From the IMG/VR virus record IMGVR_UViG_3300028988_000065, positions 1-19,778 of that record: DNA of 19,778 nt; one strand, given 5' to 3'. Made by a program: the position numbers and the translations under genes. Positions 1 to 18,542 of this stretch are shown here, piece by piece (the stretch's first letter is position 1; the number at the start of each line of letters is the position of its first letter). Origin of the DNA: a virus (lineage: Duplodnaviria > Heunggongvirae > Uroviricota > Caudoviricetes). The notes beneath the pieces were generated by a model. It saw nothing but the letters and a program-made list of their open reading frames with translations, ran no database searches and was not told the DNA's origin.

Positions 1-216
1 TTATTCACCTCTCGCAGCCTTGCGCTTATCTTCTTTAATCTTGAAATAAAGGTTTGTCAGGTACGTCAGCAGGCCAAATACCAGACTACCCAGCACACCG
101 ATTGCAGCCCACTGTGACGGAGTTACTCTATCGAGCAACTGTAAAAACCAGTAGCCAGCACTGCCTGCGGAGGTGCCGTAGGCAATGCCTGTTGAAATTT
201 TGTCCATGGATTTCAT
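1..216 (-). CDS. Class II holin (pinholin), phage 21 S21-type, 71 aa with dual start MKSMDK
   Basis: Translation [71 protein letters not shown] is near-identical to S21 as I recall it. Two in-frame ATGs (216 and 207) give the antiholin/holin pair. GGAGGTGA RBS lies at 221-228 (- strand). The track ORF extends to a GTG at 273, but the ATG at 216 with its RBS is preferred. Confidence 0.9.
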
Positions 217-319
217 AGCCTCACCTCCGCACGGAACGGATGGCATAGTTATTATGTGTAGGCTTTCAGACACATCAATCAGAGCCTTAATTGATATATA
301 TGCTGGAGACGATGCAATA

Positions 320-342
320 TAAAAAGCTCGCCGTAGCGAGCT
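320..342 (-). terminator. Rho-independent terminator closing the lipoprotein cassette
   Basis: Stem 325-331/336-342 (AGCTCGC / GCGAGCT) with loop CGTA, followed on the - strand by UUUUAUAUU. It lies about 125 nt downstream of the 468..863 CDS. Confidence 0.5.
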
Positions 343-467
343 AATAAAATGTATTTCTCTGATATTATGTTTATTTGTATTAGCTCAGACTTGACATCAC
401 AGGTTTCGTATATAGAACATCATCAAATCTGTCAGTTTGCTATGAATGAGATATAGTAATTGAAGAG

Positions 468-863
468 CTAACCTCGCATGTCAAAGCCAGATTTCTGAAA
501 ATCTCTGTAGACTTCCGGATTGTTGAAGGCCGGAAATTTGGCTTTATGAGCTGCGGACTTTATCGCTTCGCAATAGGCTTTATCACCGTTACTGGTAGAT
601 ATTTTTAACGCCGTGCCATCCTGAGAGAATTCCATATGCAACCTGCATTTTTTCCCTTTCCAGTTATGCGGCTCATCAAGTTTGGCATTAATTGCAGCTC
701 TGATTCCCCGCGCTTGCGCCCCCCATTCATCCTGATCATCCCAGCGTCCTGAACTGCAACTACCTGTAGCAGTAGTTTTGTGGCAATCTGAAGGGTGTAA
801 AGGTGTGCATCCCGCAACAAAACCGACCCAAAAAGTCAACATAACGATTTTCTTTAATCCCAC
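468..863 (-). CDS. Lipoprotein with TolA C-terminal domain (domain III)-like region, 131 aa; paralog of 1014..1442
   Basis: GTG start preceded by GAGGAG RBS. N-terminus MGLKKIVMLTFWVGFVAGC is a lipoprotein signal peptide with lipobox VAGC. C-terminal part (KKCRLHMEF...DGTALKI...YCEAIKSAAHKAKFPAFNNPEVYRDFQ) parallels TolA domain III (GKTCTLRIKLAPDGMLLDI...LCQAALAAAKLAKIPKPPSQAVYEVFK), recalled from memory. Confidence 0.75.
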   Translation of the reverse strand: MGLKKIVMLTFWVGFVAGCTPLHPSDCHKTTATGSCSSGRWDDQDEWGAQARGIRAAINAKLDEPHNWKGKKCRLHMEFSQDGTALKISTSNGDKAYCEAIKSAAHKAKFPAFNNPEVYRDFQKSGFDMRG

Positions 864-1013
864 TTCTTGCTCCTCAATCCATTAAAATCTCAGCAATAGT
901 AGTTGTTACGTCCGCCACTGGCTCAGAGCTGACTATCCGCTAAATTTAGCTCAGTGCCGTAGCTGTGTCAGAACAAACCTAAGCCGAAACCGTTTATTAC
1001 AAAACAATAAATA

Positions 1014-1442
1014 TCAGGGTTTAAAATCCAGCACCCCATTTTGAAATACTTTATATACTTCCGGCGAAGGGGGGGCAGGTATATCAGCATTCTTTATCGC
1101 ATTCATCGCTTCACGACATAAATCGAGGTCTCCACTTTCTCTTTTAACCTCCAGTAGAAGGCCATTCGGGGCCATATGCATTCTCAGTGTACACTCTTTT
1201 CCTGAATACTTACTCGCATCCCCGAACTGTTTTTCGATGGCGCTCTTGATTTGATGGGCATACAGACGGATATCCTCACTAACATCAGAAGTACGTTCAG
1301 ATGAACTCACATACTGTGTCTCTATTGCTTTATCGGAGTAATATGATGTACGGTCATGATAATTTGTCGATACAGCATCAGTGCACCCGATAATAATCCC
1401 ACTAATAATCAACGTAAGAATTGATGCGCTACGAAAACCCAT
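1014..1442 (-). CDS. Lipoprotein with TolA C-terminal domain (domain III)-like region, 142 aa
   Basis: ATG at 1442 with GAGGA RBS. Signal peptide MGFRSASILTLIISGIIIGC has lipobox IIGC. C-terminal 80 aa (YAHQIKSAIEKQFGDASKYSGKECTLRMHMAPNGLLLEVKRESGDLDLCREAMNAIKNADIPAPPSPEVYKVFQNGVLDFKP) is closely similar to the E. coli TolA C-terminus (YAGQIKSAIESKFYDASSYAGKTCTLRIKLAPDGMLLDIKPEGGDPALCQAALAAAKLAKIPKPPSQAVYEVFKNAPLDFKP), including both Cys. Confidence 0.8.
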   Translation of the reverse strand: MGFRSASILTLIISGIIIGCTDAVSTNYHDRTSYYSDKAIETQYVSSSERTSDVSEDIRLYAHQIKSAIEKQFGDASKYSGKECTLRMHMAPNGLLLEVKRESGDLDLCREAMNAIKNADIPAPPSPEVYKVFQNGVLDFKP

Positions 1443-1471
1443 TTTTCCTCACATATGTCATATAGTAAAGG

Positions 1472-1501
1472 ATTATATATACCGTTGTTTTGGACGCTCA
1501 A
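1472..1501 (-). promoter_or_regulatory. Candidate sigma70 promoter for the TolA-like lipoprotein cassette
   Basis: On the - strand: -35 TTGAGC (plus 1496-1501), 18-bp spacer, -10 TATAAT (plus 1472-1477), about 30 nt upstream of the ATG at 1442. Confidence 0.45.
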
Positions 1502-2379
1502 ACAGCGAATCAGATCAAATAAAACGCACATTTGTTAACATTTACACAAAGTCTGCGTGGGATATTCTGAAAGAATATCCATAATGTGGAGAGAATCTAT
1601 TGAAGTGCATGGTGCCGGGTGCCTCCCGGTGAACAAAATGTTCGTGATACCTGTCGGCGACAGAAAAGGTTAATGGTATCACCCCACCGCACAGGGGGAT
1701 TCACCATGCAGGAGTTTTCTTAGCAAACTCACTGCGCGCCCGGCAACTCCCAACCACATAAAATGCGGAGTTTGTGGCATTTATGCATATAACTCGCAGG
1801 AATTATCTTAAAAAACTGATGTCGATCCGGATTAAAAAGAAGCAGGTCATCATCAGATGACTGGAAAAAAGGAAAACAAAAAATACTCATCATACAGTTT
1901 TGATTGCAGGGATGAGCCTGCTATGCACAATATGCAGAATATAAGCAAGATAAAAATATGCAGGCATATTATTTCGGATTTTGTTATTAACACAACCTTT
2001 TTAATAATCATTTGGCATACAATAAACCAGCCCAGAAAGAACCGCCTAAACAGGCGGTTGGTCAATACAAAGGATGCTTCGTCTTTATTATAGTAATCTG
2101 AGGCGTCGGGTGTCTTGTATCAGACAACATATTGTCCCGCTAAACAGCGAATTACAAACCACCCTGCAATGATCTCTCATCTCATTTTATATGAGTTGAC
2201 GACATCAGGATAACGCATCATCAGCCCCTGCCAAGAAATATCAAAACTCCCGCCAGCAATGTGTTATCACAATATTGTAAAAAAAACACAGCACCGAAAC
2301 TATAACTGGTCTCTGTTATAATTTGGAGCAGAAAGACCAGTTGCCCAACTAGCAGCATTCTCCCCTGCTTTCCTGACGT

Positions 2380-2407
2380 AAAAAAAACCGCATTAAGCGG
2401 TTTTTTT
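2380..2407 (-). terminator. Bidirectional intrinsic terminator; candidate tR' downstream of Q
   Basis: A8-CCGC-ATTAA-GCGG-T7 perfect hairpin with U-tracts on both strands, about 80 nt downstream of the Q stop on the - strand. Confidence 0.6.
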
Positions 2408-2462
2408 ACGATGTCCATGTCTGCAATCCGCCTCGCGATACAGCTTTGCGAAGCATAGCAAA

Positions 2463-2491
2463 ATTGAAGCAGTTTATACGTAAGAAATCAA
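2463..2491 (-). promoter_or_regulatory. Candidate late promoter PR' overlapping the 3' end of Q (weak match)
   Basis: On the - strand: TTGATT (plus 2486-2491), 17 bp, TTCAAT (plus 2463-2468). The position between Q and the hairpin fits the lambdoid PR'-qut-tR' layout, but the hexamers are poor. Confidence 0.25.
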
Positions 2492-3030
2492 GCCATTTTC
2501 TCAGCAAATGATTCACGCATGGGAATATATAGGGCATACTCAGCAACAGCTAACCAATTAGCAATCCGTTTTTCGCATGTGCTAAAACACCACTCTGGGT
2601 GTGCATCATTTAGCAATTCAGCCATTTTGCGCTTAGTCATCCCCCGCCCTTCATAGCGTTGCCGGAGAATGCAAATCAATCCTGGATGCTCTGCCAGCAC
2701 CTCACTTATGACTCGATCAATACATAACGCCTCTGCATCAGTACAATGCGCCAGCCAGCTCTTTTGCTTGCCGTTGATCATCTCTCGCAAAAACGCTTCC
2801 AGCTCAGCTTTCTCTATTCCCGCTTTTTTCATTCTGCGCAGGGCTTCATTAATGGCTGTTTTCGTCAGTTTTTTGGATGCCAACAACTGATTGAACATAT
2901 TCCCTGACCTGCCACCGCCAATATACGACCAGCGCCCCCACATACGTAGTTTTCCCTGAATCCAGACACTTTCCAGCGTGGTGAGGCGAAGGTGTTCTCC
3001 GCTTTTTCCTGTATTCGTTGGGTAAATCAT
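2488..3030 (-). CDS. Putative late-gene antiterminator Q (QuuD/Qin-type family), 180 aa
   Basis: Sits immediately upstream of the terminator/holin region. The W-x-R-W motif region (LRMWGRWSY) resembles LERWGAW of DLP12 QuuD as I recall it. Its ATG overlaps the stop of the upstream gene (ATGA), suggesting translational coupling. Confidence 0.6.
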   Translation of the reverse strand: MIYPTNTGKSGEHLRLTTLESVWIQGKLRMWGRWSYIGGGRSGNMFNQLLASKKLTKTAINEALRRMKKAGIEKAELEAFLREMINGKQKSWLAHCTDAEALCIDRVISEVLAEHPGLICILRQRYEGRGMTKRKMAELLNDAHPEWCFSTCEKRIANWLAVAEYALYIPMRESFAEKMA

Positions 3031-3317
3031 AAATGACCTTTCTTTCTCCAGATTTCTTGTGTGCGAAAAACCCCTTCAGCATGCATCAGGCGCAATTCTT
3101 CTTTGGTGTAATCGCTGGTTTTTACCCGCCCGTCGATTAGATCGTGGCATGAGCTACAGGCTATCGCCGCCTGCATATCGTGTGGTTTTGTCGCTGTTCC
3201 GCACGTCCCCGCCAGCCTGTAATGCGCCAGCACAGAGGTTTCGGGATTGTGATTGCAGTAGCCAGGGATTCTGATCTGGCACATCTGGCCTTTAGCCGCT
3301 TTACGTAAATTCACCAT
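3027..3317 (-). CDS. YbcO-like nin-region protein (DUF1364, putative Zn-binding nuclease), 96 aa
   Basis: MVNLRKAAKGQMCQIRIPGYCNHNPETSVLAHYRLAGTCGTATKPHDMQAAIACSSCHDLIDGR matches the conserved pattern of DLP12 YbcO (LRKAARG..C..RIPG.CN.NPETSVLAH.RL.G.CG..KP.D...IACS.CHD.ID), recalled from memory. Confidence 0.75.
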   Translation of the reverse strand: MVNLRKAAKGQMCQIRIPGYCNHNPETSVLAHYRLAGTCGTATKPHDMQAAIACSSCHDLIDGRVKTSDYTKEELRLMHAEGVFRTQEIWRKKGHL

Positions 3318-3916
3318 TACGCAAACTCCAGTAGTTGTGCGGCCACATTTTCAACTTCCTCCTGAGAGGAGAATTTACGGAACAGAATCCAGTTCCACAG
3401 CACATTCAGTACAGATTTATAAACCTGCTGAAACTCGACTTCGTCCATATTCGCAAAAGCGATGGATTTTGCCCGACGCCCACGGCTACCGTCCGGATAA
3501 ATATGCTCGGTGTAAAATCCGGCCTGAATGGTTACCCACTCGCGGAAAGCCTCAAACGACTTTAGCAACGCCGTATCCCGGGTTCTACGAGTCGCAACGG
3601 TGTTAAGGTATTGCTCTGCGGCATCACTCAGGGCTGGCGTGTGTTCCCGACCAACTGATTCGCACAGGTAATCAACGAAACCAGACAGCAGTTCTCGTTC
3701 GCGAGGCGTGATCGCCCCACCGACCGGAGTCCAGTAATCGAATCCCAGTTGCAGGAGTTTGAAAAAACGCTTGTGGAATGCGTAGTTACGCACACGCTTA
3801 AAGTCTGCGTGTATCCACTCACCTATTTTGATTTGATGCAGAAAATCGCAACTCTCCGGCGTCGCCGGGAGAAGTAAACCAGAAGAAGTTTGTTTGACCA
3901 GTTGTATATGCGCCAT
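3317..3916 (-). CDS. Conserved lambdoid nin-region protein, DUF1367-like (family assignment tentative), 199 aa
   Basis: Long ORF, with its stop overlapping the start of the next gene (TAATG). Size and position match the roughly 200-aa phage DUF1367 family; the assignment is from memory only. Confidence 0.6.
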   Translation of the reverse strand: MAHIQLVKQTSSGLLLPATPESCDFLHQIKIGEWIHADFKRVRNYAFHKRFFKLLQLGFDYWTPVGGAITPRERELLSGFVDYLCESVGREHTPALSDAAEQYLNTVATRRTRDTALLKSFEAFREWVTIQAGFYTEHIYPDGSRGRRAKSIAFANMDEVEFQQVYKSVLNVLWNWILFRKFSSQEEVENVAAQLLEFA

Positions 3917-4189
3917 TTCTCAATCTCTCGATGGCGCAGTGCAGCAGATGCCAGTTGTTCAGGCTGACGTATAAAGTATAAATAAACTGGTTCCAGTGTA
4001 AAGCCCCCACCTTAATGGAATAAAAACCAAACAACAGATTGCTGGGATACAAACAACGCTTATTATTAAAAGCGGTTAAACAAATTAAATTTTAATGTTA
4101 TGCAAATTTGTCAGATCACCATAATATCTCATTTGAAAACCGCTGAAATAACAACCCTATCAGGGTTAATCATATTAAGGTGAGTAAAT

Positions 4190-4276
4190 ATGGAAAACAA
4201 CAAATCTGCACATTACGTTCCTTTTTTATCTGTAATACTTTTTGTTTTATGCTGTGCGTGGGCATTATTTTTATAA
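4190..4276 (+). CDS. Possible 28-aa hydrophobic single-TM peptide (MENNKSAHYVPFLSVILFVLCCAWALFL)
   Basis: ATG preceded by AAGGTGAG RBS at 6-nt spacing. Polar N-terminus followed by a 19-residue hydrophobic stretch. Lies on the opposite strand to its neighbours in AT-rich cargo DNA. It is below the ORF-track size cutoff and I found no recognisable promoter. Confidence 0.3.
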   Translation: MENNKSAHYVPFLSVILFVLCCAWALFL

Positions 4277-4357
4277 AAATATTTACAGATGAAGTAAACC
4301 CGCCAATCAGGTTAACTGTGGCTGCGTTGAGGATGCATAATACATCAGAGGTTGCGG

Positions 4358-4367
4358 GGATTTCTCC
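4358..4367. repeat. Target-site duplication (left copy) of the IS186 insertion, GGATTTCTCC
   Basis: The same 10 bp recurs at 5707-5716, directly abutting the IS terminal inverted repeats. Confidence 0.8.
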
Positions 4368-5706
4368 CATAAGCGCTAACTTAAGGGTTGTGGTATTACG
4401 CCTGATATGATTTAACGTGCCGATGAATTACTCTCACGATAACTGGTCAGCAATTCTGGCCCATATTGGTAAGCCCGAAGAACTGGATACTTCGGCACGT
4501 AATGCCGGGGCTCTAACCCGCCGCCGCGAAATTCGTGATGCTGCAACTCTGCTACGTCTGGGGCTGGCTTACGGCCCCGGGGGGATGTCATTACGTGAAG
4601 TCACTGCATGGGCTCAGCTCCATGACGTTGCAACATTATCTGACGTGGCTCTCCTGAAGCGGCTGCGGAATGCCGCCGACTGGTTTGGCATACTTGCCGC
4701 ACAAACACTTGCTGTACGCGCCGCAGTTACGGGTTGTACAAGCGGAAAGAGATTGCGTCTTGTCGATGGAACAGCAATCAGTGCGCCCGGGGGCGGCAGC
4801 GCTGAATGGCGACTACATATGGGATATGATCCTCATACCTGTCAGTTCACTGATTTTGAGCTAACCGACAGCAGAGACGCTGAACGGCTGGACCGATTTG
4901 CGCAAACGGCAGACGAGATACGCATTGCTGACCGGGGATTCGGTTCGCGTCCCGAATGTATCCGCTCACTTGCTTTTGGAGAAGCTGATTATATCGTCCG
5001 GGTTCACTGGCGAGGATTGCGCTGGTTAACTGCAGAAGGAATGCGCTTTGACATGATGGGTTTTCTGCGCGGGCTGGATTGCGGTAAGAACGGTGAAACC
5101 ACTGTAATGATAGGCAATTCAGGTAATAAAAAAGCCGGAGCTCCCTTTCCGGCACGTCTCATTGCCGTATCACTTCCTCCCGAAAAAGCATTAATCAGTA
5201 AAACCCGACTGCTCAGCGAGAATCGTCGAAAAGGACGAGTAGTTCAGGCGGAAACGCTGGAAGCAGCGGGCCATGTGCTATTGCTAACATCATTACCGGA
5301 AGATGAATATTCAGCAGAGCAAGTGGCTGATTGTTACCGTCTGCGATGGCAAATTGAACTGGCTTTTAAGCGGCTCAAAAGTTTGCTGCACCTGGATGCT
5401 TTGCGTGCAAAGGAACCTGAACTCGCGAAAGCGTGGATATTTGCTAATCTACTCGCCGCATTTTTAATTGACGACATAATCCAGCCATCGCTGGATTTCC
5501 CCCCCAGAAGTGCCGGATCCGAAAAGAAGAACTAACTCGTTGTGGAGAATAACAAAAATGGTCATCTGGAGCTTACAGGTGGCCATTCGTGGGACAGTAT
5601 CCCTGACAGCCTACAAAACGCAATTGAAGAACGCGAGGCATCGTCTTAACGAGGCACCGAGGCGTCGCATTCTTCAGATGGTTCAACCCTTAAGTTAGCG
5701 CTTATG
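4368..5706 (+). mobile_element. IS186 (IS4 family) insertion sequence, about 1.34 kb, apparently intact
   Basis: Terminal inverted repeats CATAAGCGCTAACTTAAGGGTTG (4368-4390) and its reverse complement (5684-5706). Single transposase ORF. Flanked by a 10-bp direct repeat. Confidence 0.9.
4423..5535 (+). CDS. insL: IS186 transposase (DDE, IS4 family), 370 aa
   Basis: Translation MNYSHDNWSAILAHIGKPEELDTSARNAG...YRLRWQIELAFKRLKS matches IS186 InsL as I recall it, including the IS4-family Y-R-E-K signature region. Confidence 0.9.
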   Translation: MNYSHDNWSAILAHIGKPEELDTSARNAGALTRRREIRDAATLLRLGLAYGPGGMSLREVTAWAQLHDVATLSDVALLKRLRNAADWFGILAAQTLAVRAAVTGCTSGKRLRLVDGTAISAPGGGSAEWRLHMGYDPHTCQFTDFELTDSRDAERLDRFAQTADEIRIADRGFGSRPECIRSLAFGEADYIVRVHWRGLRWLTAEGMRFDMMGFLRGLDCGKNGETTVMIGNSGNKKAGAPFPARLIAVSLPPEKALISKTRLLSENRRKGRVVQAETLEAAGHVLLLTSLPEDEYSAEQVADCYRLRWQIELAFKRLKSLLHLDALRAKEPELAKAWIFANLLAAFLIDDIIQPSLDFPPRSAGSEKKN

Positions 5707-5716
5707 GGATTTCTCC
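5707..5716. repeat. Target-site duplication (right copy) of the IS186 insertion
   Basis: GGATTTCTCC, identical to 4358-4367. Confidence 0.8.
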
Positions 5717-5912
5717 CCGCTGGTCCTCTTACTCCCCAAGTTCGTAAGCTGTGAAGACAGCGACCTCCGTCTGGTCGGTTCGGATTCGTACCTCGCAGAG
5801 GTCTTTCCTTGCAACCTGCACCGTCATAATAACGGTAAATGTTGAATCGTTCGTAAATTAATCTATACAGATTATTATATAGCTCTCATTACGATTTTGA
5901 TTACTCTCACTT

Positions 5913-5944
5913 AAAAATACCGAAAGATACATGATCTTTCGGTA
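5913..5944 (-). terminator. Rho-independent terminator of the NTPase-nuclease gene
   Basis: 11-bp perfect stem TACCGAAAGAT / ATCTTTCGGTA (5918-5928 / 5934-5944) with loop ACATG, followed on the - strand by UUUUU. It starts 9 nt after the stop codon at 5954-5956. Confidence 0.7.
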
Positions 5945-5953
5945 AAGATTGAA

Positions 5954-8023
5954 TTACTTACATTTATTATTTAAATAGACCCTTATGTACTGATCGAGCA
6001 GTTTACCTAATTGTTTATTAACTTCGTCATGTTTTTGCGGGCTTCTCATTTTTGACAGATGCCTTTCAAGGAACTTAGAGGGTAACTTCACAACTAATTT
6101 ATTATGATTATCATAAATTTCTTTTACCCACGTAAGCTCTTTATGTTTTTCTAAATTCTCTGTGTGATCTCTATTTATGATAAAAGCTATCCGCCCATAG
6201 TCTTTAAACAAATAGGAATTTACCTGTCTATATTCTGCAGCACCTAATGTTTTATAGTTTTTCACTTCAAAAACAACTTGCCGTGTCTGATAATCTGTCA
6301 GAATTCTCTTCCAAACTGGAGTGTCAGCTATATTTGTCGCTATAATATCTCTTTGCTGCAACCCATTTTTATTGGGATGCAACTCAATGTTCGTTAAATT
6401 CGTAGCAAATAGTAACTTTATAGTTTTGAGCGCCCATGCTTCAAAATCGACAGCACCTTCAGGTCCTTCAGGTATATTATGTAGTTCTTGGAGCAACGAA
6501 CCGATTCGTTGTTTCCTCTGCTCTTCGGAAACAGAGCTGACCTCAATATCATATTCATCATGAATATCATCAGCAGCATCGGGAGTCATCTCTGATTCAT
6601 GAACACTTAATGCTAGCCAGTAGCATGGATGCAATAGCAATTTTGAATCTGGTGTAAATTCTTTTTCAGGTTCCTTACCGTCATGGCAAAATACATATGA
6701 AGATGACTGCTGGTTATACAACCCAATAAATCCAACACTGTAAAGTCGTTGAATCACCTGGATTGGCCCTTCAAAAAGAAGTAAATCCTGCATTTTCATC
6801 TTGTCAATAACGCCATTGAGATCAAGGGCATATTGTATCTTAGATGACGCTTCAGAAACACTGTAGTAAGGTTTGCTATTAGCAAATTGCGATGTAAATA
6901 TATCTAATGCAGGAAATACATTCTCATATTCTTTTAACAAATCATTGAGTCTATTTTGTGAAATAGTATTCGCTGTTGCTTGAATGTCATCAATGACAAT
7001 ACGATTACGATCATGTGTGTTTGCTCGCAAGAATGCATTATTTAACAAAACCAAAATATCTCTTGGCCTATATAGAGTCAGTTTCAATGTTTCTTTAAAA
7101 CCGGTATTAGACTGTAATTCATTTGCGGTGTAAGCATTCCACACCCTCGTGTTGTTCTCAATGGTTGAGTTAAAAGCGACCCTCATTCTATTGCATACAA
7201 GATTAAACAAGTTATATTCATCCCAATGTAATCTCAGTACTTGCCCTTCAATATTTCGAGTAAAATCAGGGTCCATTTTTGATATGGCTCGATGAATATT
7301 ATCTCTAACAAATGCAAAGGCAATAACCTTTTCATTCATATTTTGTTTTATATCAATCACAGCCTGAATGAAACCATCAACTATTGCAACACCAAGATTA
7401 TCCGGTGTATAGCCTTCATCAAGCCTATCAGCAAAAATAACAAATTGATTATTTGACTTCGAAATTGCTTCTTCTATCACCTCTTCCAATAAGTCAAGTT
7501 CAAATTTATCGGATAATTCGGCTATTCTTGTAGCTGGTTTTATATTTTTGTTATCATCGAGAATAGCGTTCAATTTTTTTCTTATTTTGCTACTTATATT
7601 TTGTCTCTTCGGTCCCCAAGATAATAAATGCGACTCTACACTTTTGTAGTCAAGATCGTTTTTCATCTTGTAATGACTTGCGATCTCAGAAAGCAGCTCC
7701 ATATAAATAGCATATCGCCATGCTAACTTGCTACCGGCTTTTATATGTAAGTAATTTTCACCAAATAAAGAAATAACATCCCTTAATCCAATAATTTGTT
7801 CTTCAACCGGACTAATAGTCATCACATAGGTTTTTGGCTTAGCATGCCAATGTTTGGAAAGCATATGCACCAGAGCACTTTTTCCTGTTCCTCTGCGGCC
7901 AACAATGATGCATCGATCGTAGGATTCGAGAAGAGCTTTATAATCAGTTGTTTGCCAAAATGAAGCTTCCAACATCTTTTCGTCATGTTCAGCTCGGATA
8001 TCCCCAAGAATATTACCTTTCAT
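5954..8023 (-). CDS. Uncharacterised 689-aa P-loop NTPase (AAA+/Arch-ATPase-like) fused to a C-terminal PD-(D/E)xK / RecB-like nuclease-type domain; candidate defence protein
   Basis: Walker A IIVGRRGTGKSAL (aa 39-51). Walker B-like QFVIFADRLDE (aa 193-203). C-terminal motifs RD559II ... FE576VK578 ... Q600VNSY604 (D / ExK / QxxxY). AAGGA RBS 6 nt upstream of the ATG. Visibly AT-rich relative to the flanking prophage genes. Own terminator. Confidence 0.85.
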   Translation of the reverse strand: MKGNILGDIRAEHDEKMLEASFWQTTDYKALLESYDRCIIVGRRGTGKSALVHMLSKHWHAKPKTYVMTISPVEEQIIGLRDVISLFGENYLHIKAGSKLAWRYAIYMELLSEIASHYKMKNDLDYKSVESHLLSWGPKRQNISSKIRKKLNAILDDNKNIKPATRIAELSDKFELDLLEEVIEEAISKSNNQFVIFADRLDEGYTPDNLGVAIVDGFIQAVIDIKQNMNEKVIAFAFVRDNIHRAISKMDPDFTRNIEGQVLRLHWDEYNLFNLVCNRMRVAFNSTIENNTRVWNAYTANELQSNTGFKETLKLTLYRPRDILVLLNNAFLRANTHDRNRIVIDDIQATANTISQNRLNDLLKEYENVFPALDIFTSQFANSKPYYSVSEASSKIQYALDLNGVIDKMKMQDLLLFEGPIQVIQRLYSVGFIGLYNQQSSSYVFCHDGKEPEKEFTPDSKLLLHPCYWLALSVHESEMTPDAADDIHDEYDIEVSSVSEEQRKQRIGSLLQELHNIPEGPEGAVDFEAWALKTIKLLFATNLTNIELHPNKNGLQQRDIIATNIADTPVWKRILTDYQTRQVVFEVKNYKTLGAAEYRQVNSYLFKDYGRIAFIINRDHTENLEKHKELTWVKEIYDNHNKLVVKLPSKFLERHLSKMRSPQKHDEVNKQLGKLLDQYIRVYLNNKCK

Positions 8024-8075
8024 CCAGATTCCTTTTTAACCCATTGAGGTGACAGCACAAATAGTATCTTAACAC

Positions 8076-8091
8076 CTGATGATTTCATCAG
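8076..8091. promoter_or_regulatory. Perfect palindrome CTGATGA-TT-TCATCAG upstream of the NTPase-nuclease gene; candidate operator
   Basis: 7-bp inverted repeat with a 2-bp spacer, 53-68 bp upstream of the start codon at 8023, in a 253-bp AT-rich intergenic region. Confidence 0.25.
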
Positions 8092-8276
8092 AACCTGATA
8101 AATAGACGTGATATAAATATGACTAAGATCACATTTCATGAAAAAATTCGACGAGTTTATATTAACTGCAGCGAATACAAATCACCGCAGTTTTCATTAC
8201 CCCTATCTGAAGAACTCTGCACAACCGATCATATTGGTCACAACTGCAGCAGGATGACTCATATAATCAGGAGTAT

Positions 8277-9026
8277 TTATTTCTCCATACCTGCTGCAAT
8301 AACTTTATGGACAATATCCCAGTGCTTGTTCAGCTCCCGCAGCGCGGCGCAGACTCGCTCCCACTTCTGGACATGATTCTTCGCCCTACGCAGTTCGCGG
8401 TTTGCCATATGCAGCGATGGCAAAATCAAATCATCTTCTCGCGTTGCAGTAAACGATGGCAGCGACTGCACAATGTCCGCTACAGTTTCTGTTTTAATAT
8501 CTTCCTGTGTTGCATCTTTCTGTACCGGTAACGCAACACCTGCTGGCTGAGGAAAGGCTTTAAAATCAGTTTCCGTTACCGATGCAGCTTTCGGCTCTGC
8601 TGGTAAATTATCGCCCGGTATGCAGTAACGAAATTTACCGTTCTGGTTTACGCGAATCAGGCGTCCTTTGCTGATTGCCATTGCCAGCGTTGAAGCAACT
8701 TTGCGGGATGTTGTACCGAACAGCGTAGCCAGTTCATCCGCCGTTTGTGGTCCGCGTTGTTCAATCGTCGCGGTTAAATCGCACTCTGAGATTTTCACTA
8801 CAGTTGCCGTGGTGGTTTCTTCCGGCAGTTCTGCCTGCATTGGCTGTTCCTGCTGAACGTTGTTATCAGCCACACGCCAGGTGTACGCGCTTTTATCAAC
8901 GAAACCAGCTTTTTTCAGTTCCCATAGTTCGTTCAGCACTGCTTCACGACTGATATCAAGTCGCGCAGCAAGTTCTATGGATGTGGCTTTTCCCATTGCT
9001 TTCAGTGCGTCAAAAACAGTCTCCAT
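8277..9026 (-). CDS. ydaW: YdaW-like protein (DUF977 family), full length, 249 aa
   Basis: ATG at 9026 with GGGAGA RBS, 22 nt after the ydaV stop. Position matches ydaW of Rac, which in K-12 is a truncated pseudogene; here the frame is open for 249 codons. Confidence 0.7.
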
Positions 9027-9048
9027 TAAATTTTTCTCCCGGTAAAAA

Positions 9049-9795
9049 TTACTTCGCAATTCCTGGCTGGACGACATTCGGACGCCAGCTCTCCCAGTTG
9101 AAATTCACCCATCGCCCGCCGTTCATGGTCATGCGATCCATAATCCGCTCGCCAAGCAATGTTTTCATGGCCTCATAGTTCAGGTTTGTCAGCATCCCCA
9201 CGCTGCGCATCGACGCTGTCCGGCGATCAACAATCTGGTGCAGTACCACCTGCTCGTTTTTCGTCTCGCGCTGAATGCCAATTTCATCAAGAACCAGCAG
9301 ATCCACTTCGCACAGTTCCCGCAAAAATTTTTCGCCTGACTGCCCGTCGTCATAGCTGGCGTGCAGGGCACTCATAACATCAGCCACGGTAACCACAATC
9401 ACTGTCTGACCGTCTTTCAGCAGGCGATTCCCGATAGCTGCCGCTAAGTGGTTCTTCCCGGTACCAGGTTTTCCGCTGAACGCAAAATTTGTACACCCGG
9501 TCATCAGTTCATCAGCGATGGATTTCGCCTGACTCAACGCGTATCGCTGCCCTTCGTTCTGCACCTGGTAATTCGAAAACGAGCATTTGCGGTGCAATGG
9601 CTGGATGCCAGAGCGATTCAGAATTTTTTCCACCCGCAACTGACGATTCTGACGGTTGATCTCCTCACAACGTTTCTGGCCTTCGGAAAGTTGCCACTCG
9701 CGCCACTCCGCTACCGTCTTGAATGGCGCGGTTACATGTGACGGGGCCAGTCTGCGGATACGTTCAAGAACATCGCCTGTCGCAATATTTTTCAT
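9049..9795 (-). CDS. ydaV: Replication protein, DnaC/lambda P-like helicase loader, 248 aa
   Basis: Walker [16 protein letters not shown] and Walker B LLVLDEIG. Matches Rac YdaV in sequence and length, from memory. Confidence 0.9.
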
Positions 9796-9801
9796 GGTCA
9801 G

Positions 9802-10659
9802 TTACCCCCTGAAGCCTGGCGGGATCGCACTATCCGGTAACGAGACGGTGTTAACCTGTCGGAGTAACGTCTCAGGTCGAACACCTTTCGGCGCGAACAA
9901 GCCCTGGTATTCATTGGCGATGCTGTGTCGAATCACCTGCTCAGGTGAAAAACCCTGCTGGCGGAATTTTTCCAGCTCCCGTATCGCCCCGTTAGCGCCC
10001 TGCTCCGTTCGAATCGGTTTTCGCAATGCCTGGCGAAATTCAACCCACTCACGCCAAAGCGAGACAGAAATCCAGTTCGGCAAAGTAATATCCAGAGGGT
10101 CAAACTTTTTGACACCTCGATTCCCCCGGGGGGGATTTAGGGGGGGATCTGTTTTTAGATCTTTATCTGTATCTTTATTAGTTGCCTTTGTGTTGACATC
10201 ATGTTCAAACACCACTTCAACATCTGTTTGAACACCTGTTAAATTTTTCTCTTGTTTTGTTTGAACATCTGCTTCCTTTCTGCTTCTTCTGGCCTGAACA
10301 GATGCTTTTCCTGCGGCTGATTTTTTGGTTAATTTTTCCCTGACTGATGCCAGATCTTCCTCAATCCGAAGATGCACCCATTCCTCGCCGTTATCGCAAA
10401 AAAACTCCTGCAAGGATGGTTCAACATCAGCCCATCGCTCGTTAGTCAGACGGGCAATTTTTGCCAGCCTGTTTTTAGGTATTGGCTTTCCTGTTTGCCA
10501 GTAATTGAACATCAGCAACAAATACGCACCATGCTCCTCTGCTGACAAATGCATGGTGTCAGCCAGGTAATCAGCTATGTACAGTTGCATGTATGGTAAT
10601 GCGGCCATAATTGCCCCGTATGATGCTGCCCGGTGGCTTAGAATAAGCACAAACAGCAT
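9802..10659 (-). CDS. ydaU: Replication initiation protein (lambda O-like, DUF1376), 285 aa
   Basis: Matches Rac YdaU (MLFVLILSHRAASYGAIMAALPYMQLYIADYL...), from memory; lies immediately upstream of ydaV in the same operon. Confidence 0.85.
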   Translation of the reverse strand: MLFVLILSHRAASYGAIMAALPYMQLYIADYLADTMHLSAEEHGAYLLLMFNYWQTGKPIPKNRLAKIARLTNERWADVEPSLQEFFCDNGEEWVHLRIEEDLASVREKLTKKSAAGKASVQARRSRKEADVQTKQEKNLTGVQTDVEVVFEHDVNTKATNKDTDKDLKTDPPLNPPRGNRGVKKFDPLDITLPNWISVSLWREWVEFRQALRKPIRTEQGANGAIRELEKFRQQGFSPEQVIRHSIANEYQGLFAPKGVRPETLLRQVNTVSLPDSAIPPGFRG

Positions 10660-10671
10660 GGAAACTTTTGC

Positions 10672-11094
10672 TTAATGAACAATGACAGAATCGTCGGAAG
10701 AACCGCCGCCGCTGAAATGCGCTTTCCGGTAAACGGCTTGGACTGCATCATCATGCGCATCAATTGCCGTACTTAACGCTTCCTGCGCCGCCAGTAATGC
10801 ACGGCGTTCCAGGGTATCGAAGATGCAGAGTCGGTGACGCAGCTCGCGCGGAAGGATTGCCAGAATTGCTGGGATCAGCTTCTGAATTTTTTCTCTTTGC
10901 GTTTTCGTTTCACCTTTCAACCAACGGTGATAGATATTCTGCTGATTGTTCCAGTCCTTGCCTGGAACCAGGGGCAATTCGCCGCCCCCCTGGCGCAGAT
11001 ATTCTTCAGTAATTGCATTGGCTACCCATGCCTGCCCTTTTTCGGCTGCTAGGGCAAACAACACTGATTCGATGTGCTCATGCTTGATTTTCAT
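10672..11094 (-). CDS. ydaT: YdaT, Rac early protein reported as toxic/cell-division inhibiting (CII position), 140 aa
   Basis: Matches Rac YdaT in sequence and length, from memory; second gene of the rightward early operon. Confidence 0.85.
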   Translation of the reverse strand: MKIKHEHIESVLFALAAEKGQAWVANAITEEYLRQGGGELPLVPGKDWNNQQNIYHRWLKGETKTQREKIQKLIPAILAILPRELRHRLCIFDTLERRALLAAQEALSTAIDAHDDAVQAVYRKAHFSGGGSSDDSVIVH

Positions 11095-11116
11095 GAATCA
11101 TTTGCCTCTTGATGTT

Positions 11117-11413
11117 TCAGGTATGATCAAATGAGGATTTGTTACTGTCATTTAGTTGCTTCACTGACATATTCTGCGAACAACATGCCGAACGTCGTAA
11201 ATATGACCAGTCAATATCAGGACGAAGTTCTTCGCACAGAACCTCACCTCTTGTTGCACGTTCAATTGCTGGACATCTCTCGGCAGGCAATTGACGTACC
11301 CCTTTGATCCATTGATTTACGCTTGGAGGTGATACACCTAAAAGCCTAGCCATTGCTGATTGCCCACCGACAACAGCACAAGCTTGCTTGAATGAATAGT
11401 TCTCTTTTTTCAT
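11117..11413 (-). CDS. ydaS: Cro-like HTH regulator YdaS, 98 aa
   Basis: HTH region QACAVVGGQSAMARLLGVSPPSVNQWIKG. Divergent from racR. Matches Rac YdaS, from memory. Confidence 0.9.
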   Translation of the reverse strand: MKKENYSFKQACAVVGGQSAMARLLGVSPPSVNQWIKGVRQLPAERCPAIERATRGEVLCEELRPDIDWSYLRRSACCSQNMSVKQLNDSNKSSFDHT

Positions 11414-11439
11414 CGAATGAACTCCAAAAACACACAGAA

Positions 11440-11469
11440 ATATTAGGCGACGCCTAACGCAATTGTCAA
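11440..11469 (-). promoter_or_regulatory. PR-like promoter for ydaS with embedded operator palindrome
   Basis: On the - strand: -35 TTGACA (plus 11464-11469), 18-bp spacer, -10 TAATAT (plus 11440-11445). The palindrome TTAGGCGaCGCCTAA (11443-11457) sits in the spacer. Further TTAGGC-type half-sites occur at 11478-11485 and 11503-11510. Confidence 0.55.
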
Positions 11470-11485
11470 TAGGCTGTGCCTAATG
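11462..11485. repeat. 24-bp repeat ATTGTCAATAGGCTGTGCCTAATG, left arm of an inverted repeat flanking racR (OR side)
   Basis: Its reverse complement recurs at 12108-12131 with a single mismatch. Confidence 0.8.
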
Positions 11486-11536
11486 CAGTAAGGGTAGGGA
11501 TTGCCTAATGTAATGCGCATAGGAGAATATTAAGCA

Positions 11537-12013
11537 ATGCTTAGTGGTAAAGACTTAGGCCGAGCGATAGAGCAGGCCATTAACAAAAAAATCGCATCGG
11601 GATCCGTCAAATCAAAGGCGGAGGTCGCACGCCACTTTAAAGTCCAACCACCATCAATTTATGACTGGATTAAGAAAGGCTCTATAAGTAAAGATAAACT
11701 TCCAGAATTATGGCGTTTCTTTTCTGATGTTGTTGGTCCAGAGCATTGGGGGCTTAACGAATACCCCATACCAACCCCCACCAATTCAGATACAAAAAGT
11801 GAACTTTTAGATATAAACAACCTTTATCAAGCAGCCTCTGATGAAATAAGAGCGATTGTAGCTTTCCTGTTATCTGGAAATGCTACAGAACCAGATTGGG
11901 TTGACCACGATGTTCGCGCCTACATAGCAGCGATGGAAATGAAAGTGGGTAAGTATCTGAAAGCTCTTGAATCTGAACGGAAAAGCCAGAACATCACAAA
12001 AACTGGAACTTAA
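11537..12013 (+). CDS. racR: Prophage repressor RacR (CI-like), 158 aa
   Basis: Matches RacR (MLSGKDLGRAIEQAINKKIASGSVKSKAEVARHFKVQPPSIYDWIKKG...), from memory; divergent from ydaS. Confidence 0.9.
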   Translation: MLSGKDLGRAIEQAINKKIASGSVKSKAEVARHFKVQPPSIYDWIKKGSISKDKLPELWRFFSDVVGPEHWGLNEYPIPTPTNSDTKSELLDINNLYQAASDEIRAIVAFLLSGNATEPDWVDHDVRAYIAAMEMKVGKYLKALESERKSQNITKTGT

Positions 12014-12107
12014 ACTTATATGGTCTGACGGAAAACTCCTGGATTCCGTTATTTAACCCCCCCATCACTTTCTGCTGTCGCCATCACCTATTAGGTTACG
12101 CTCAAAA

Positions 12108-12131
12108 CATTAGGCATAGCCTATTGACAAT
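12108..12131. repeat. Right arm of the racR-flanking inverted repeat (OL side)
   Basis: CATTAGGCATAGCCTATTGACAAT is the reverse complement of 11462-11485 with 1 mismatch. Extra TTAGGC half-sites lie at 12087-12095 and 12133-12143. Confidence 0.8.
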
Positions 12132-12152
12132 CAATTAGGCATTACCTATAGT
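12124..12152 (+). promoter_or_regulatory. PL-like promoter for the early-left operon (ydaG through intR)
   Basis: -35 TTGACA (12124-12129), 17-bp spacer, -10 TATAGT (12147-12152). Embedded in the operator repeat and oriented away from racR. Confidence 0.6.
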
Positions 12153-12321
12153 TCCAGCATACCACCCACCCCGCCCCACAGAACGCCGGGCAATACTTCG
12201 AGTTACCAGGCAGTGGTAAGGGGTTAAGTAGCCAGCCCGAGGCGTATGAACATGACGGCGGGATTCAAATTTTGCAGTGCAGCAGTTAGTTCCGCCACCC
12301 GGCGTTAAGGGGAGAGATAAG

Positions 12322-12456
12322 ATGGTGCATTACGAAGTAGTTCAGTATTTGATGGATTGTTGCGGTATCACTTACAACCAGGCTGTGCAGGCTTTACGCA
12401 GCAACGACTGGGATCTCTGGCAGGCAGAAGTCGCTATACGTAGCAACAAGATGTGA
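12322..12456 (+). CDS. ydaG: Small Rac protein YdaG, 44 aa
   Basis: ATG with GGGGAGAG RBS. Translation MVHYEVVQYLMDCCGITYNQAVQALRSNDWDLWQAEVAIRSNKM. Confidence 0.7.
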   Translation: MVHYEVVQYLMDCCGITYNQAVQALRSNDWDLWQAEVAIRSNKM

Positions 12457-12466
12457 GATTCGCAAA

Positions 12467-12622
12467 ATGCAAAAAATCGACCTCGGCAACAACGAATCCC
12501 TGGTGTGCGGCGTGTTCCCCAACCAGGATGGAACGTTCACTGCCATGACGTATACCAAAAGCAAAACATTTAAAACCGAAACTGGTGCGCGCCGATGGTT
12601 GGAGAAGCACACAGTAAGCTAA
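12467..12622 (+). CDS. ydaF: Small Rac protein YdaF, 51 aa
   Basis: Translation MQKIDLGNNESLVCGVFPNQDGTFTAMTYTKSKTFKTETGARRWLEKHTVS. Its stop overlaps the sieB stop on the other strand. Confidence 0.7.
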   Translation: MQKIDLGNNESLVCGVFPNQDGTFTAMTYTKSKTFKTETGARRWLEKHTVS

Positions 12623-13107
12623 CGATTAAAACGTCTACTCCTGCTGTTCCAGAATAACTTCATAAAATGGGAGTATTTTTCGGTGACGAGATAATAAGAA
12701 CAGTTTGCGCTATCACTCTGATGTTGAATGATGCCCTTCCGTTCTAATTTTTTCATAACCGGGTTACGGCAAGGAGAAGTGATAATAAGATTTCCTGTTT
12801 TAAGGAAATCTTTAAATACAGCGATTTCTTTCTCAGATAAACGAAGCAATACTCGTTGCTCTGGTAGTAATGAATAATGCTTTTGAATATGTGCTCGCAA
12901 TCTTGAGAAGGAAATGGCGACCACGAAAGAAAAGGAAAAAACGATAATCTGAAAGAGCCAAGGTATTTCAGTATAAGCATTGAATGCGACAGTAAACTCT
13001 TTCGGTATCAGCCAGAGAGTGAGACCAAAAATGATAATCGTATACATAAGTCTTTCGAGTGGCTCGTTAGCAAAAAGTTTCAACAATGGAGTAAATACAT
13101 CCAACAT
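12619..13107 (-). CDS. sieB: Superinfection exclusion protein SieB, 162 aa (membrane protein)
   Basis: Start taken at the MLDVF ATG (13107), matching the K-12 length as I recall it. Hydrophobic segments present. The track ORF runs further upstream to 13230. Confidence 0.8.
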   Translation of the reverse strand: MLDVFTPLLKLFANEPLERLMYTIIIFGLTLWLIPKEFTVAFNAYTEIPWLFQIIVFSFSFVVAISFSRLRAHIQKHYSLLPEQRVLLRLSEKEIAVFKDFLKTGNLIITSPCRNPVMKKLERKGIIQHQSDSANCSYYLVTEKYSHFMKLFWNSRSRRFNR

Positions 13108-13325
13108 ATCAATAACTCTCAACTGTAAGGGTATTGAAATGTTAACACAAGCTCTCGCTGTAGGGGTATAGCCGAGACCACCGAAGCCCGGAGGTGGTGA
13201 AATAAAACCGGGCACAACACGAAGGCGCATTTCCGATATCCATAAAGAGTCGGTCTTGTCTGTTAAATTTAAATGGTGGGAGTGCGCCTCCGGTTGTAAA
13301 TAACGACATTGCTGTGTGTAGTCCT

Positions 13326-13373
13326 GGCGGCATCAGTTTTTTTCTTGAAGTTCGGCTGATGTCCGCCCTTTTT
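13326..13373 (+). terminator. Candidate tL1-like intrinsic terminator/attenuator upstream of kilR
   Basis: GC-rich stem GGCGGCATCAG / CTGATG(T)CCGCC (11 bp with one bulge) around a 19-nt loop, followed by CTTTTT on the + strand. Confidence 0.35.
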
Positions 13374-13548
13374 AAAGTGAATTTTGTGATGCGGTGAATG
13401 CGGCTAAGCGCACGTGGCACAGTTAAAAGTCATGTTAGTCCTTATTGGTTTGGGTGGGAAAGCCGACTGTAATTGTTAACTGGTTGCAGTCACCTGGAGG
13501 CACCAGACACCGCATCAACAAAGTTCATTTGTAAAAATGGAGATAATT

Positions 13549-13770
13549 ATGATTGCACATCACTTCGGAACTGATGAAATACCACGTCAGTGTGTGACTC
13601 CTGGCGATTATGTTCTTCATGAAGGCCGGACATATATTGCCTCGGCAAACAATATTAAAAAGCGAAAACTATATATTCGTAACCTGACCACAAAAACATT
13701 CATTACTGACCGCATGATTAAAGTCTTCCTCGGTCGTGATGGTTTACCTGTAAAGGCGGAGTCATGGTGA
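13549..13770 (+). CDS. kilR: KilR, FtsZ-ring/cell-division inhibitor, 73 aa
   Basis: Translation [80 protein letters not shown]. Confidence 0.9.
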
Positions 13771-13940
13771 TGACTAAGAAAATAAAATGTGCTTACCACC
13801 TTTGCAAAAAAGACGTTGAAGAAAGCAAAGCTATTGAAAGAATGCTTCACTTCATGCACGGGATTTTATCAAAAGACGAACCGAGAAAATATTGCAGTGA
13901 AGCTTGTGCCGAAAAAGACCAGATGGCACATGAACTTTAA
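13770..13940 (+). CDS. ydaE: YdaE, small Cys-rich (Zn-binding type) protein, 56 aa
   Basis: ATG overlaps the kilR stop (TGATG). Translation [56 protein letters not shown]. Not in the ORF track because it is shorter than 60 aa. Confidence 0.8.
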   Translation: MTKKIKCAYHLCKKDVEESKAIERMLHFMHGILSKDEPRKYCSEACAEKDQMAHEL

Positions 13941-14014
13941 TTAATTGACTATTCGAAACTGAATTTATGCCAGAAATGGCAGGTATTCGCTCAACCTTAA
14001 TTAAGGAGAAAAAC

Positions 14015-14290
14015 ATGATTACCAATTATGAAGCCACTGTTGTAACTACCGATGACATTGTTCACGAGGTGAATCTGGAAGGAAAGCGCATTGGCTACGT
14101 AATTAAAACAGAAAATAAAGAAACCCCATTCACTGTGGTTGATATCGATGGTCCATCAGGCAACGTAAAAACACTTGATGAAGGTGTCAAAAAAATGTGC
14201 CTGGTGCATATCGGAAAGAATCTGCCCGCAGAAAAAAAAGCCGAATTTCTGGCAACTCTAATTGCAATGAAATTAAAAGGTGAAATCTGA
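14015..14290 (+). CDS. racC: RacC, 91 aa
   Basis: AGGAG RBS. Translation MITNYEATVVTTDDIVHEVNLEGKRIGYVIKTENKETPFTVVDIDGPSG... Confidence 0.85.
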   Translation: MITNYEATVVTTDDIVHEVNLEGKRIGYVIKTENKETPFTVVDIDGPSGNVKTLDEGVKKMCLVHIGKNLPAEKKAEFLATLIAMKLKGEI

Positions 14291-14295
14291 AAGAA

Positions 14296-18541: not shown

Positions 18542-18542
18542 T

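Follow-up and report, generated by a model that had tools for sequence, protein, structure and literature searches.

TolA's C-terminal domain (domain III, hereafter TolAIII; residues 334–421 of the Escherichia coli protein, PDB 1tol, 2x9a, 3qdp, 3qdr and 1s62) is a hub for several ligands. The N-terminus of TolB, the N1 domain of the filamentous-phage protein g3p and colicin N (ColN) bind at its strand beta3, colicin A (ColA) binds at strand beta2, and all do so by beta-strand augmentation (PMC7391070, PMC4339652). The g3p proteins of the phages If1 and Ff dock on this domain (PDB 2x9a and 1tol). Here we consider two adjacent genes, P1 and P2, which code for predicted lipoproteins ending in a copy of TolAIII. 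They are located in the late region of a Rac-like lambdoid prophage of E. coli (IMG/VR virus record IMGVR_UViG_3300028988_000065, positions 1 to 19,778; this whole stretch of 19,778 nucleotides is referred to as the window). We propose, with a probability of about 0.45, that P1 and P2 are outer-membrane-tethered, unenergised decoys of TolA that trap Tol-dependent colicins or the g3p of filamentous phages.

Three kinds of described systems are related to this proposal. Llp of phage T5 and Cor of phages phi80, N15 and mEp167 are small phage lipoproteins, located in the inner leaflet of the outer membrane, which protect the host by plugging FhuA. P1 and P2 are likewise small phage-encoded lipoproteins (with a predicted outer-membrane location), but they have no sequence or family kinship with Llp and Cor and, as copies of a periplasmic import hub, they would bind the invader and not its receptor.

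The second system is the resistance conferred by g3p (pIII): periplasmic g3p-N1 sequesters TolA, which makes cells resistant to colicin A and lowers phage uptake by 4 logs (PMC10424213). The interaction between TolAIII and g3p or colicins is the one that is concerned here as well. However, in that case a mimic of the ligand blocks the hub of the host, whereas P1 and P2, as mimics of the hub, would block the ligand and spare the TolA of the host.

Last, detached energy-transducer heads have been produced artificially in the periplasm. A periplasmic TolAIII or TonB C-terminal domain reportedly leads to colicin or phage tolerance, or to the inhibition of transport (work ascribed to Levengood-Freyermuth, 1993, and Howard, 2001). 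These dominant-negative constructs were artificial and soluble, whereas P1 and P2 are natural, conserved genes whose products are predicted to be tethered by a lipid.

Domain identity and fold of P1 and P2

The original prediction, made from the letters of the sequence, was that both proteins resemble TolA domain III, and the profile searches bear it out with scores far above the cutoff. P1 and P2 match the Pfam family of the TolA C-terminal domain (PF06519, gathering score 25 bits) with 82.6 bits (E = 2.4e-23) and 54.6 bits (E = 1.3e-14), respectively. In a phmmer search of PDB sequences, residues 55–142 of P1 align without any gap with residues 334–421 of E. coli TolA (E = 5e-28), with 60.5% identity in the best local alignment, which spans 86 residues; residues 51–129 of P2 match the same protein with E = 5e-9 and 33.8% identity over 77 residues. 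Among representative sequences, E. coli TolA is the TolA nearest to P1 by percent identity. The two proteins are also paralogues, as had been claimed (29% identity, E = 2e-18).

The AlphaFold2 (AF2) models of both proteins consist of a confident domain (predicted local distance difference test score, pLDDT, about 90) after an N-terminal segment of low confidence. When compared to the PDB with Foldseek, the model of P1 superimposes on 2x9a_B with a root-mean-square deviation of 0.6 Å over 88 residues (target TM-score 0.96), and that of P2 on 3qdp with a deviation of 1.1 Å (31% identity, target TM-score 0.92). The top matches of both models are all structures of E. coli TolAIII, the next ones are TolAIII of Vibrio and Pseudomonas, and the C-terminal domains of TonB come lower.

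P1 and P2 thus share with E. coli TolAIII the Pfam family, the fold and the pair of disulfide cysteines. The latter, C363 and C388 in TolA, are retained in both proteins as announced (C84 and C109 in P1, C73 and C98 in P2) and are invariant across a 16-sequence alignment. The terminal stretch of the LDFKP type had also been attributed to both. This holds for P1, which ends in PEVYKVFQNGVLDFKP and has the C-terminal beta3 motif in common with TolA (the strand includes VLDFKP), but not for P2, 31–34% identical to TolAIII, which ends in PEVYRDFQKSGFDMRG and whose beta3 strand reads GFDMRG.

The two NCBIfam models of full-length TolA, NF007065 and TIGR02794, are matched at their C-terminal end only (positions 293–386 of 387 and 265–362 of 362), and with these models neither domain I (transmembrane) nor domain II (long helical) of TolA is found in P1 or P2. 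Since these domains are absent, P1 and P2 cannot be coupled to the TolQR motor. P1 scores 107.8 against NF007065, under the cutoff of 213, and 75.6 against TIGR02794, over the cutoff of 59.45; P2 is under both cutoffs. The C-terminal part alone takes P1 past the TIGR02794 cutoff, hence its RefSeq name, "cell envelope integrity protein TolA" (gene tolA). Judged from the domain content, this name is an over-annotation, which could mislead automated counts of tolA. The label of these open reading frames (ORFs) as a TolA C-terminal domain is already in the databases, so the homology itself is not new. The only PHROG family to which P1 and P2 are assigned above noise is family 5772, of "unknown function". 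The genes were not found in the context of a tolQRA-tolB-pal operon: their neighbours are a Q-like antiterminator, the small RNA (sRNA) element STnc100 and a holin.

Lipoprotein signals and predicted location

That both proteins have the architecture of lipoproteins can be read directly from their N-termini, lipidation itself being predicted. The N-terminus of P1, MGFRSASILTLIISGIIIGC, has a positive n-region (MGFR), a hydrophobic core and the lipobox IIGC (Cys20); that of P2, MGLKKIVMLTFWVGFVAGC, has a positive n-region (MGLKK), a hydrophobic core and the lipobox VAGC (Cys19). The residue at position +2 is a threonine in P1 and in P2, from which the +2 rule predicts an outer-membrane destination. 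P1 and P2 are therefore predicted outer-membrane lipoproteins, whereas TolA is an inner-membrane protein; they also differ from TolA in that they are encoded by a prophage, outside the tolQRAB-pal operon, and are not energised by TolQR.

About 30 residues separate the lipobox of P1 from its TolAIII domain, and the tethers of both proteins are modelled with low confidence. The tether of P1 is variable, but the corresponding segment of the P2-type proteins, at their mature N-terminus (CxPLHPSxCHKTTATGSCSSGRWDDQDEWG), is conserved to the same degree as the folded domain and contains two extra cysteines. We considered that the conserved segment SSGRWDDQDEWG of P2 might mimic the TolB box of colicins (DGSGW...W), and rejected this idea: W47 occupies the alpha2 position 337, inside the fold, and the spacing differs.

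Both ORFs lie on the minus strand at the positions originally given (Table 1), P1 starting with ATG and P2 with GTG. The GTG of P2 is preferable to the later ATG chosen in RefSeq (468..842), because a Shine-Dalgarno sequence (GAGGAG) is found 6 nt upstream of it and because an ATG, with the same Shine-Dalgarno sequence, stands at the homologous position in the plasmid orthologue.

Contact surfaces and possible function

In TolA, D418 and K420 form backbone hydrogen bonds with g3p-N1, and proline substitutions in beta3 abolish the binding of ColN and g3p (PMC4339652). When the contact residues mapped in that study are compared between TolA and P1, 11 of the 16 residues of alpha2, which contacts g3p, are kept, as are 7 of the 10 residues of beta3, including the terminal LDFKP. 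The colicin A box of P1 is a conservative version of that of TolA, LLEVKR in place of LLDIKP.

From homology, fold, lipobox, conservation and distribution, we infer a localisation, a ligand binding and a phenotype of P1 and P2, as follows. The two proteins would be exported, lipid-anchored copies of TolAIII on a tether of about 25–35 residues. The translocation domains of colicins and the N1 domain of g3p would enter the periplasm just beneath the outer membrane, where the tethered domain is expected to sit. The decoy would capture them, or the exposed N-terminus of colicin-bound TolB, by a beta-strand augmentation like that of TolA. Because the decoy cannot transmit force, import would stall, and the lysogen or the plasmid host would be tolerant. 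P1 would be the likelier direct decoy, being close to E. coli TolA at the strand to which g3p, ColN and TolB bind, while P2 would come from a lineage that is older, more widespread and altered in its surfaces, and would probably have a different range of ligands. Late in infection, polymerase modified by Q would transcribe the genes strongly; in the lysogen, they may also be transcribed from a promoter of their own.

The affinities reported for TolAIII are about 1–3 µM for ColN and about 40–200 µM for TolB (PMC7391070), with one value of 4.1 µM for TolB from surface plasmon resonance. Given the gap between ColN and TolB, a decoy present at a moderate dose could favour invaders over TolB. Among the interactions of TolAIII, the one with Pal, which the original prediction took as established, is a matter of dispute in the current literature, which accepts the N-terminus of TolB as the partner (PMC7391070). 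The tyrosine that has been implicated in TolB binding (published mutation Y352H, position 353 of our alignment) is replaced by Gly in P1 and by Asp in P2; this position is a Tyr in 13 of the 56 lipoproteins of the family described below, versus 35 of 51 long TolA-like matches (200 aa or more).

Distribution and selection

P1 is found in 888 of 5426 complete E. coli genomes (16%), in lambdoid prophages, and 782 of these genomes have it at 99% identity or more. P2 is found in 1269 genomes, with about 784 chromosomal copies at 99% or more. About 780 genomes have the whole cassette at 99% identity or more, a 2.2-kb stretch that includes the Q of the window is present in 450 genomes, and in the sequenced phage mEp460_ev081 the cassette is 99.9% identical. 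In a word-indexed search with P1, which gave close relatives only and so tells little about the origin of P1, P1-type proteins are found in prophages of E. coli and Shigella only.

The ratio of nonsynonymous to synonymous substitution rates (dN/dS) is 0.04–0.16 between P2 and its orthologues. Between P1 and a variant that is 66% identical to it, the ratio is 0.36 overall, 0.25 in the domain and 0.49 in the N-terminal part. On the basis of these comparisons of sequences, P1 and P2 are under purifying selection.

When 1.84 billion representative proteins were searched with a profile, 570 matches at E ≤ 1e-3 were obtained, of which we inspected the best 150. Among these 150, 77 are short (100–165 aa), 56 of the 77 have a lipobox, and none of the 56 has an Asp at position +2; the remainder includes long TolA-like proteins. 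The combination of a lipoprotein signal with TolAIII occurs in dozens of clusters at the 50% identity level. Judging from these matches, stand-alone TolAIII lipoproteins are a diverse family.

These data bear on the simplest alternative, in which P1 and P2 are non-functional debris, that is, captured tolA fragments carried passively between Q and the holin gene S. The name given to P1 by RefSeq would fit with this, as would the fact that the match corresponds to the C-terminal quarter of the full-length TolA models. However, both ORFs are intact, each with a Shine-Dalgarno sequence, a signal peptide and a lipobox, dN/dS is well under 1, the cassette is nearly invariant in hundreds of genomes and its architecture recurs in dozens of clusters. 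We consider that the data on selection and architecture effectively refute this explanation, whose likelihood is close to nil.

P2-type genes are also found on the chromosomes of Citrobacter, Enterobacter, Klebsiella, Leclercia, Raoultella, Kluyvera, Pantoea, Rouxiella and others. The one annotated neighbourhood, in Enterobacter, is not like that of a mobile element, and the gene order is kept within a genus.

On plasmids, matches to P2 at 88% nucleotide identity are found in about 600 molecules of the IncI1/B/O/K/Z types. That these matches might come from the non-coding stretch between Q and STnc100 was considered and rejected: they come from P2. In two plasmids (IncI1/B/O and IncK2/Z; L002, 8004-8435, and L003, 8005-8400), a gene for a nikB-type relaxase lies directly 5' of the P2 orthologue, at a distance of 70–160 nt and in the same orientation, and the orthologue may be expressed together with the transfer genes. 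We also note that contigs with an IncI-type arrangement mobA–relaxase–tolA-like (L014 and L015) have been binned into metagenome-assembled genomes of Lachnospiraceae and Treponemataceae; they are probably a mis-binned enterobacterial plasmid.

A third lineage, with a weaker TolA-like match, consists of a TolAIII lipoprotein of 144 aa, with the lipobox LITAC and the end ALDFRL, found on about 310 plasmids, mostly of Klebsiella. In the one plasmid examined, the conjugative IncFIB/IncFII plasmid pMR0617ctx of K. pneumoniae (L126, 5217-6246), the gene follows that of a secreted thioredoxin-fold protein. On the same plasmid, a pair formed by a UvrD helicase and an ATPase, which resembles a defence system, is found nearby.

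In the Klebsiella oxytoca complex, a gene for a secreted TonB C-terminal mini-protein (Pfam TonB_C, 1.2e-15) lies directly 5' of that of a TolAIII lipoprotein, between der and xseA (in Klebsiella grimontii, locus L043, at 5517-5942 and 6001-6393; also in loci L041, L042 and L044). By its domain content, this pair of genes looks like a pair of detached energy-transducer heads.

It may be that some of these proteins, and P2 especially, have a different partner, and clamp a strand of an outer-membrane or periplasmic protein such as a TonB-box-like segment or a component of a conjugation machinery or pilus; they could then block a phage receptor or an entry channel, as Llp and Cor do. P2 is indeed unlike TolA at all three known ligand sites, the N-terminal segment of the P2-type proteins is conserved and has two additional cysteines, P1 has a weak Pfam match to TonB_2 besides that to TolA, TonB C-terminal structures appear lower in the fold searches, and the gene of IncI plasmids sits directly past the relaxase and near the transfer genes. 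Yet no candidate partner can be named from the sequence, P1 resembles TolA (60% identity) far more than anything else, and PHROGs and Pfam give no similarity to the families of Llp and Cor. We regard this possibility as distinctly improbable.

The decoy idea is consistent with all these findings, and is strengthened by the independent lineages of TolAIII lipoproteins on conjugative IncI and IncF plasmids and by the pairing with TonB_C. The filamentous phages If1 and Ff use I pili and F pili, respectively, as their receptors. In our opinion, the strongest circumstantial support for the decoy is the repeated recruitment of this architecture by mobile elements.

Transcription and module boundaries

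The original prediction described a self-contained cassette, with its own candidate promoter and its own terminator. The terminator is confirmed: at 342..325, a 7-bp stem (−13 kcal/mol, z = −3.8) is followed by a run of U, and none of 200 shuffled sequences folds as well. The case of the promoter is less clear. The sequence TTGAGC-18-TATAAT is present upstream of P1 (1501..1472) and matches the consensus at 10 of 12 positions, but in any given 150 nt, chance alone would produce one this good with a probability of about 0.025. Phage mEp460 has the identical sequence, which is not conserved upstream of the 66%-identical variant of P1. This sequence is therefore suggestive of a promoter of the cassette.

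The scan for intrinsic terminators in the gap between P1 and P2 was negative (fold z = −0.8), hence P1 and P2 are probably co-transcribed. Since the holin gene lies downstream, late transcription modified by Q must cross the cassette.

The limits of the module were examined in 80 viral contigs; P1 is identical in all of them, so that this set informs on module boundaries and not on diversity. P2 and the same holin follow P1 in 80 of 80 contigs, while in about half of them homology breaks upstream, between positions 1550 and 1650 of the window, that is, inside STnc100. The same break is seen with mEp460, where STnc100 is also found upstream of P1 (114 bits). Because the break between alternative Q modules falls inside it, STnc100 may be a recombination joint in lambdoid late regions. 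With a constant holin and a varying upstream side, the cassette thus behaves as part of a module that includes the lysis genes and is joined to at least two different Q modules. Of the features of a self-contained cassette, the terminator is borne out; the promoter is a consensus match, the Q module varies, and P1, P2 and the holin stay linked in all 80 contigs, so that the cassette is at most a candidate for an autonomous mobile unit.

The position of the cassette, between Q and the holin and with a terminator after it, is like that of the morons found between Q and S (stx and nanS-p; bor and lom are located elsewhere in lambda), from which it differs by its promoter, which is only a candidate, and by its constant holin. 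In Stx-phage-like Q–S intervals, the 66%-identical variant of P1 occupies the position of stx, past the tRNAs and beside nanS-p; it is alone there, without P2.

The vicinity of the lysis genes suggests another function. A tethered TolAIII could compete with TolA for the N-terminus of TolB, damp the mobilisation of Pal and loosen the outer membrane. This modulation of Tol-Pal would be of use to the phage, by easing lysis and the release of virions late in infection or by increasing vesiculation, and the chromosomal homologues would serve to tune Tol-Pal. The cassette indeed lies past Q and directly upstream of the holin, endolysin and spanin genes, so that late transcription passes through it; the beta3 strand that P1 keeps is the site of TolB too; and P2-type chromosomal genes are kept in many genera under strong purifying selection. 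It has also been proposed that modulating the interactions of TolB could regulate the production of vesicles (PMC7391070). However, the same proteins are encoded on plasmids and chromosomes where lysis genes are not found in the vicinity, the holin is set apart from the cassette by a strong terminator, the reported affinity of TolA for TolB is weak, the tyrosine that is implicated in TolB binding is replaced in P1, in P2 and in most of the related lipoproteins, and the prophage already has a probable spanin. We consider this modulation of Tol-Pal, which is the main rival of the decoy, rather unlikely.

Weighing the decoy proposal

Several observations weigh against the proposal that P1 and P2 are decoys. 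First, P2 has diverged from TolA at alpha2, beta2 and beta3, with 8 of 32 contact residues identical, so that its ligands cannot be taken for granted to be those of P1. In P1, the conservation of the contact regions does not significantly exceed that of the remaining domain (21 of 32 versus 31 of 56 residues identical, Fisher p = 0.38); there is no statistical signature of mimicry. Second, the P2-type chromosomal genes of Enterobacter, Leclercia, Klebsiella and other genera have ordinary neighbourhoods and are under strong purifying selection, and a housekeeping role in the envelope fits them at least as well. Third, the cassette is part of a Q-dependent late transcript and precedes the lysis genes, a position that would also suit a role in the lytic cycle, and the promoter that would allow its expression in the lysogen is a candidate deduced from a consensus match. 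Fourth, cells that overproduce a periplasmic TolAIII are said to be leaky as well as colicin-tolerant (Levengood-Freyermuth et al., 1993), and a TolAIII decoy may carry a cost. Last, PADLOC gave no match of P1 or P2 to known defence systems, and our search of full-text literature found no paper on the function of P1- or P2-type proteins.

Two apparent leads from the literature were discarded: the "TolA" of O157 expression papers is the host gene and not P1, and the "TolA domain" of a Liberibacter prophage is part of a colicin-Ia-like gene.

Prophage setting

The window carries recE/recT, the RalA sRNA, sieB and ydaS/T/U/V-type genes. On the minus strand, the order in the late region is Q-like antiterminator, hairpin with a run of U, STnc100, P1, P2, terminator and holin (Table 1); the position of the cassette between Q and the holin, which the original prediction had deduced, is borne out by the profile matches of these two flanks.

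Table 1. Features of the late region and of other parts of the window (positions are those of the window).
Feature	Position	Strand	Evidence
P21 S-type (class II) holin, opens the lysis cassette	1..216	-	Pfam Phage_holin_2_1 4.5e-35; RefSeq CDS of identical locus
Intrinsic terminator, gap between P2 and holin	325..342	-	AGCTCGC-TACG-GCGAGCT, then UUUUUAUAUU
P2, 131-aa lipoprotein, RefSeq WP_001348108.1	468..863	-	Pfam, PDB search, AF2 and Foldseek
TolAIII domain of P2, residues 44-131	471..734	-	pLDDT 90 or more across the domain
Conserved N-terminal segment of P2, residues 20-43	735-806	-	Alignment of P2-type proteins
P1, 142-aa lipoprotein, RefSeq WP_000506936.1 "TolA"	1014..1442	-	Pfam, PDB phmmer, AF2 and Foldseek; GAGGA Shine-Dalgarno 5 nt before ATG
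TolAIII domain of P1, residues 54-142	1017..1283	-	pLDDT about 90; secondary structure H-H-E-E-H-H-E
Candidate sigma-70 promoter upstream of P1	1472..1501	-	TTGAGC-18-TATAAT; 10/12 consensus match
STnc100 sRNA element, directly 5' of the cassette	1553..1739	-	Rfam RF02076, 86.6 bits vs gathering score 47
Hairpin and U-run just 3' of Q	2375..2405	-	−15.9 kcal/mol, z = −4.6; about 85 nt past the Q stop codon
Q-like late antiterminator (DUF1133)	2488..3030	-	Pfam DUF1133 2.5e-107; Phage_antitermQ 8.6e-6 (marginal); PHROG 753 "anti-termination protein Q-like" 2e-79
Insertion sequence (IS) element, transposase	4417-5535	+	DDE_Tnp_1
STAND/ORC-Cdc6-like ATPase, 689 aa	5954-8023	-	Weak PADLOC PDC-M36A matches
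SieB superinfection exclusion protein	12619-13230	-
RecE/RecT	14392-17794	+
RalA antitoxin sRNA	18044-18222	-	225 bits

The longest ORF of the holin reaches position 273, while the RefSeq coding sequence at the identical locus corresponds to the limits given in Table 1. At this identical locus of strain SCU-104, the holin is followed by the genes of the RrrD lysozyme, a lysis protein, trkG and the head genes; the lysis protein is probably the spanin.

The hairpin located just 3' of Q may be tR', at which the short transcript of the late promoter would terminate. Past this hairpin, the stretch between Q and STnc100 (1740-2487) holds about 640 nt with no convincing ORF or tRNA; in mEp460 and in Stx-like phages, tRNAs are found at this position.

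Elsewhere in the window, the IS element adjoins the STAND/ORC-Cdc6-like ATPase. In strain SCU-104, the equivalent position of the prophage is occupied by the anti-phage system iteAS; this site is therefore probably a defence hotspot.

Significance

P1 and P2 are cargo lipoproteins of a mobile element, in which a known domain appears in a new, motor-less architecture. If, by way of TolB, such proteins turned out to tune the Tol-Pal system, they would be the first natural trans-acting regulators of Tol-Pal, and useful probes.

Competition among gut Enterobacteriaceae is driven in large part by Tol-dependent colicins and filamentous phages. The known means of protection are mutations of the receptor or of the tol genes, which are costly, specific immunity proteins and the g3p of phages. 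We tentatively suggest that motor-less TolA heads tethered to the outer membrane, accompanied at some loci by a secreted TonB head, constitute a widespread and unrecognised form of periplasmic decoy immunity on prophages, on conjugative plasmids, the pili of which attract TolA-dependent filamentous phages, and on some chromosomes, which would intercept Tol-dependent colicins and g3p before energised import. If this is true, a decoy of the import hub that can be transferred would provide cells with a broad tolerance of colicins and phages by a new and cheap means. About one E. coli genome in six and hundreds of IncI and IncF resistance plasmids would carry it, and it would bear on the use of colicins and phages as therapeutics, and on the persistence of plasmids despite pilus-specific phages.

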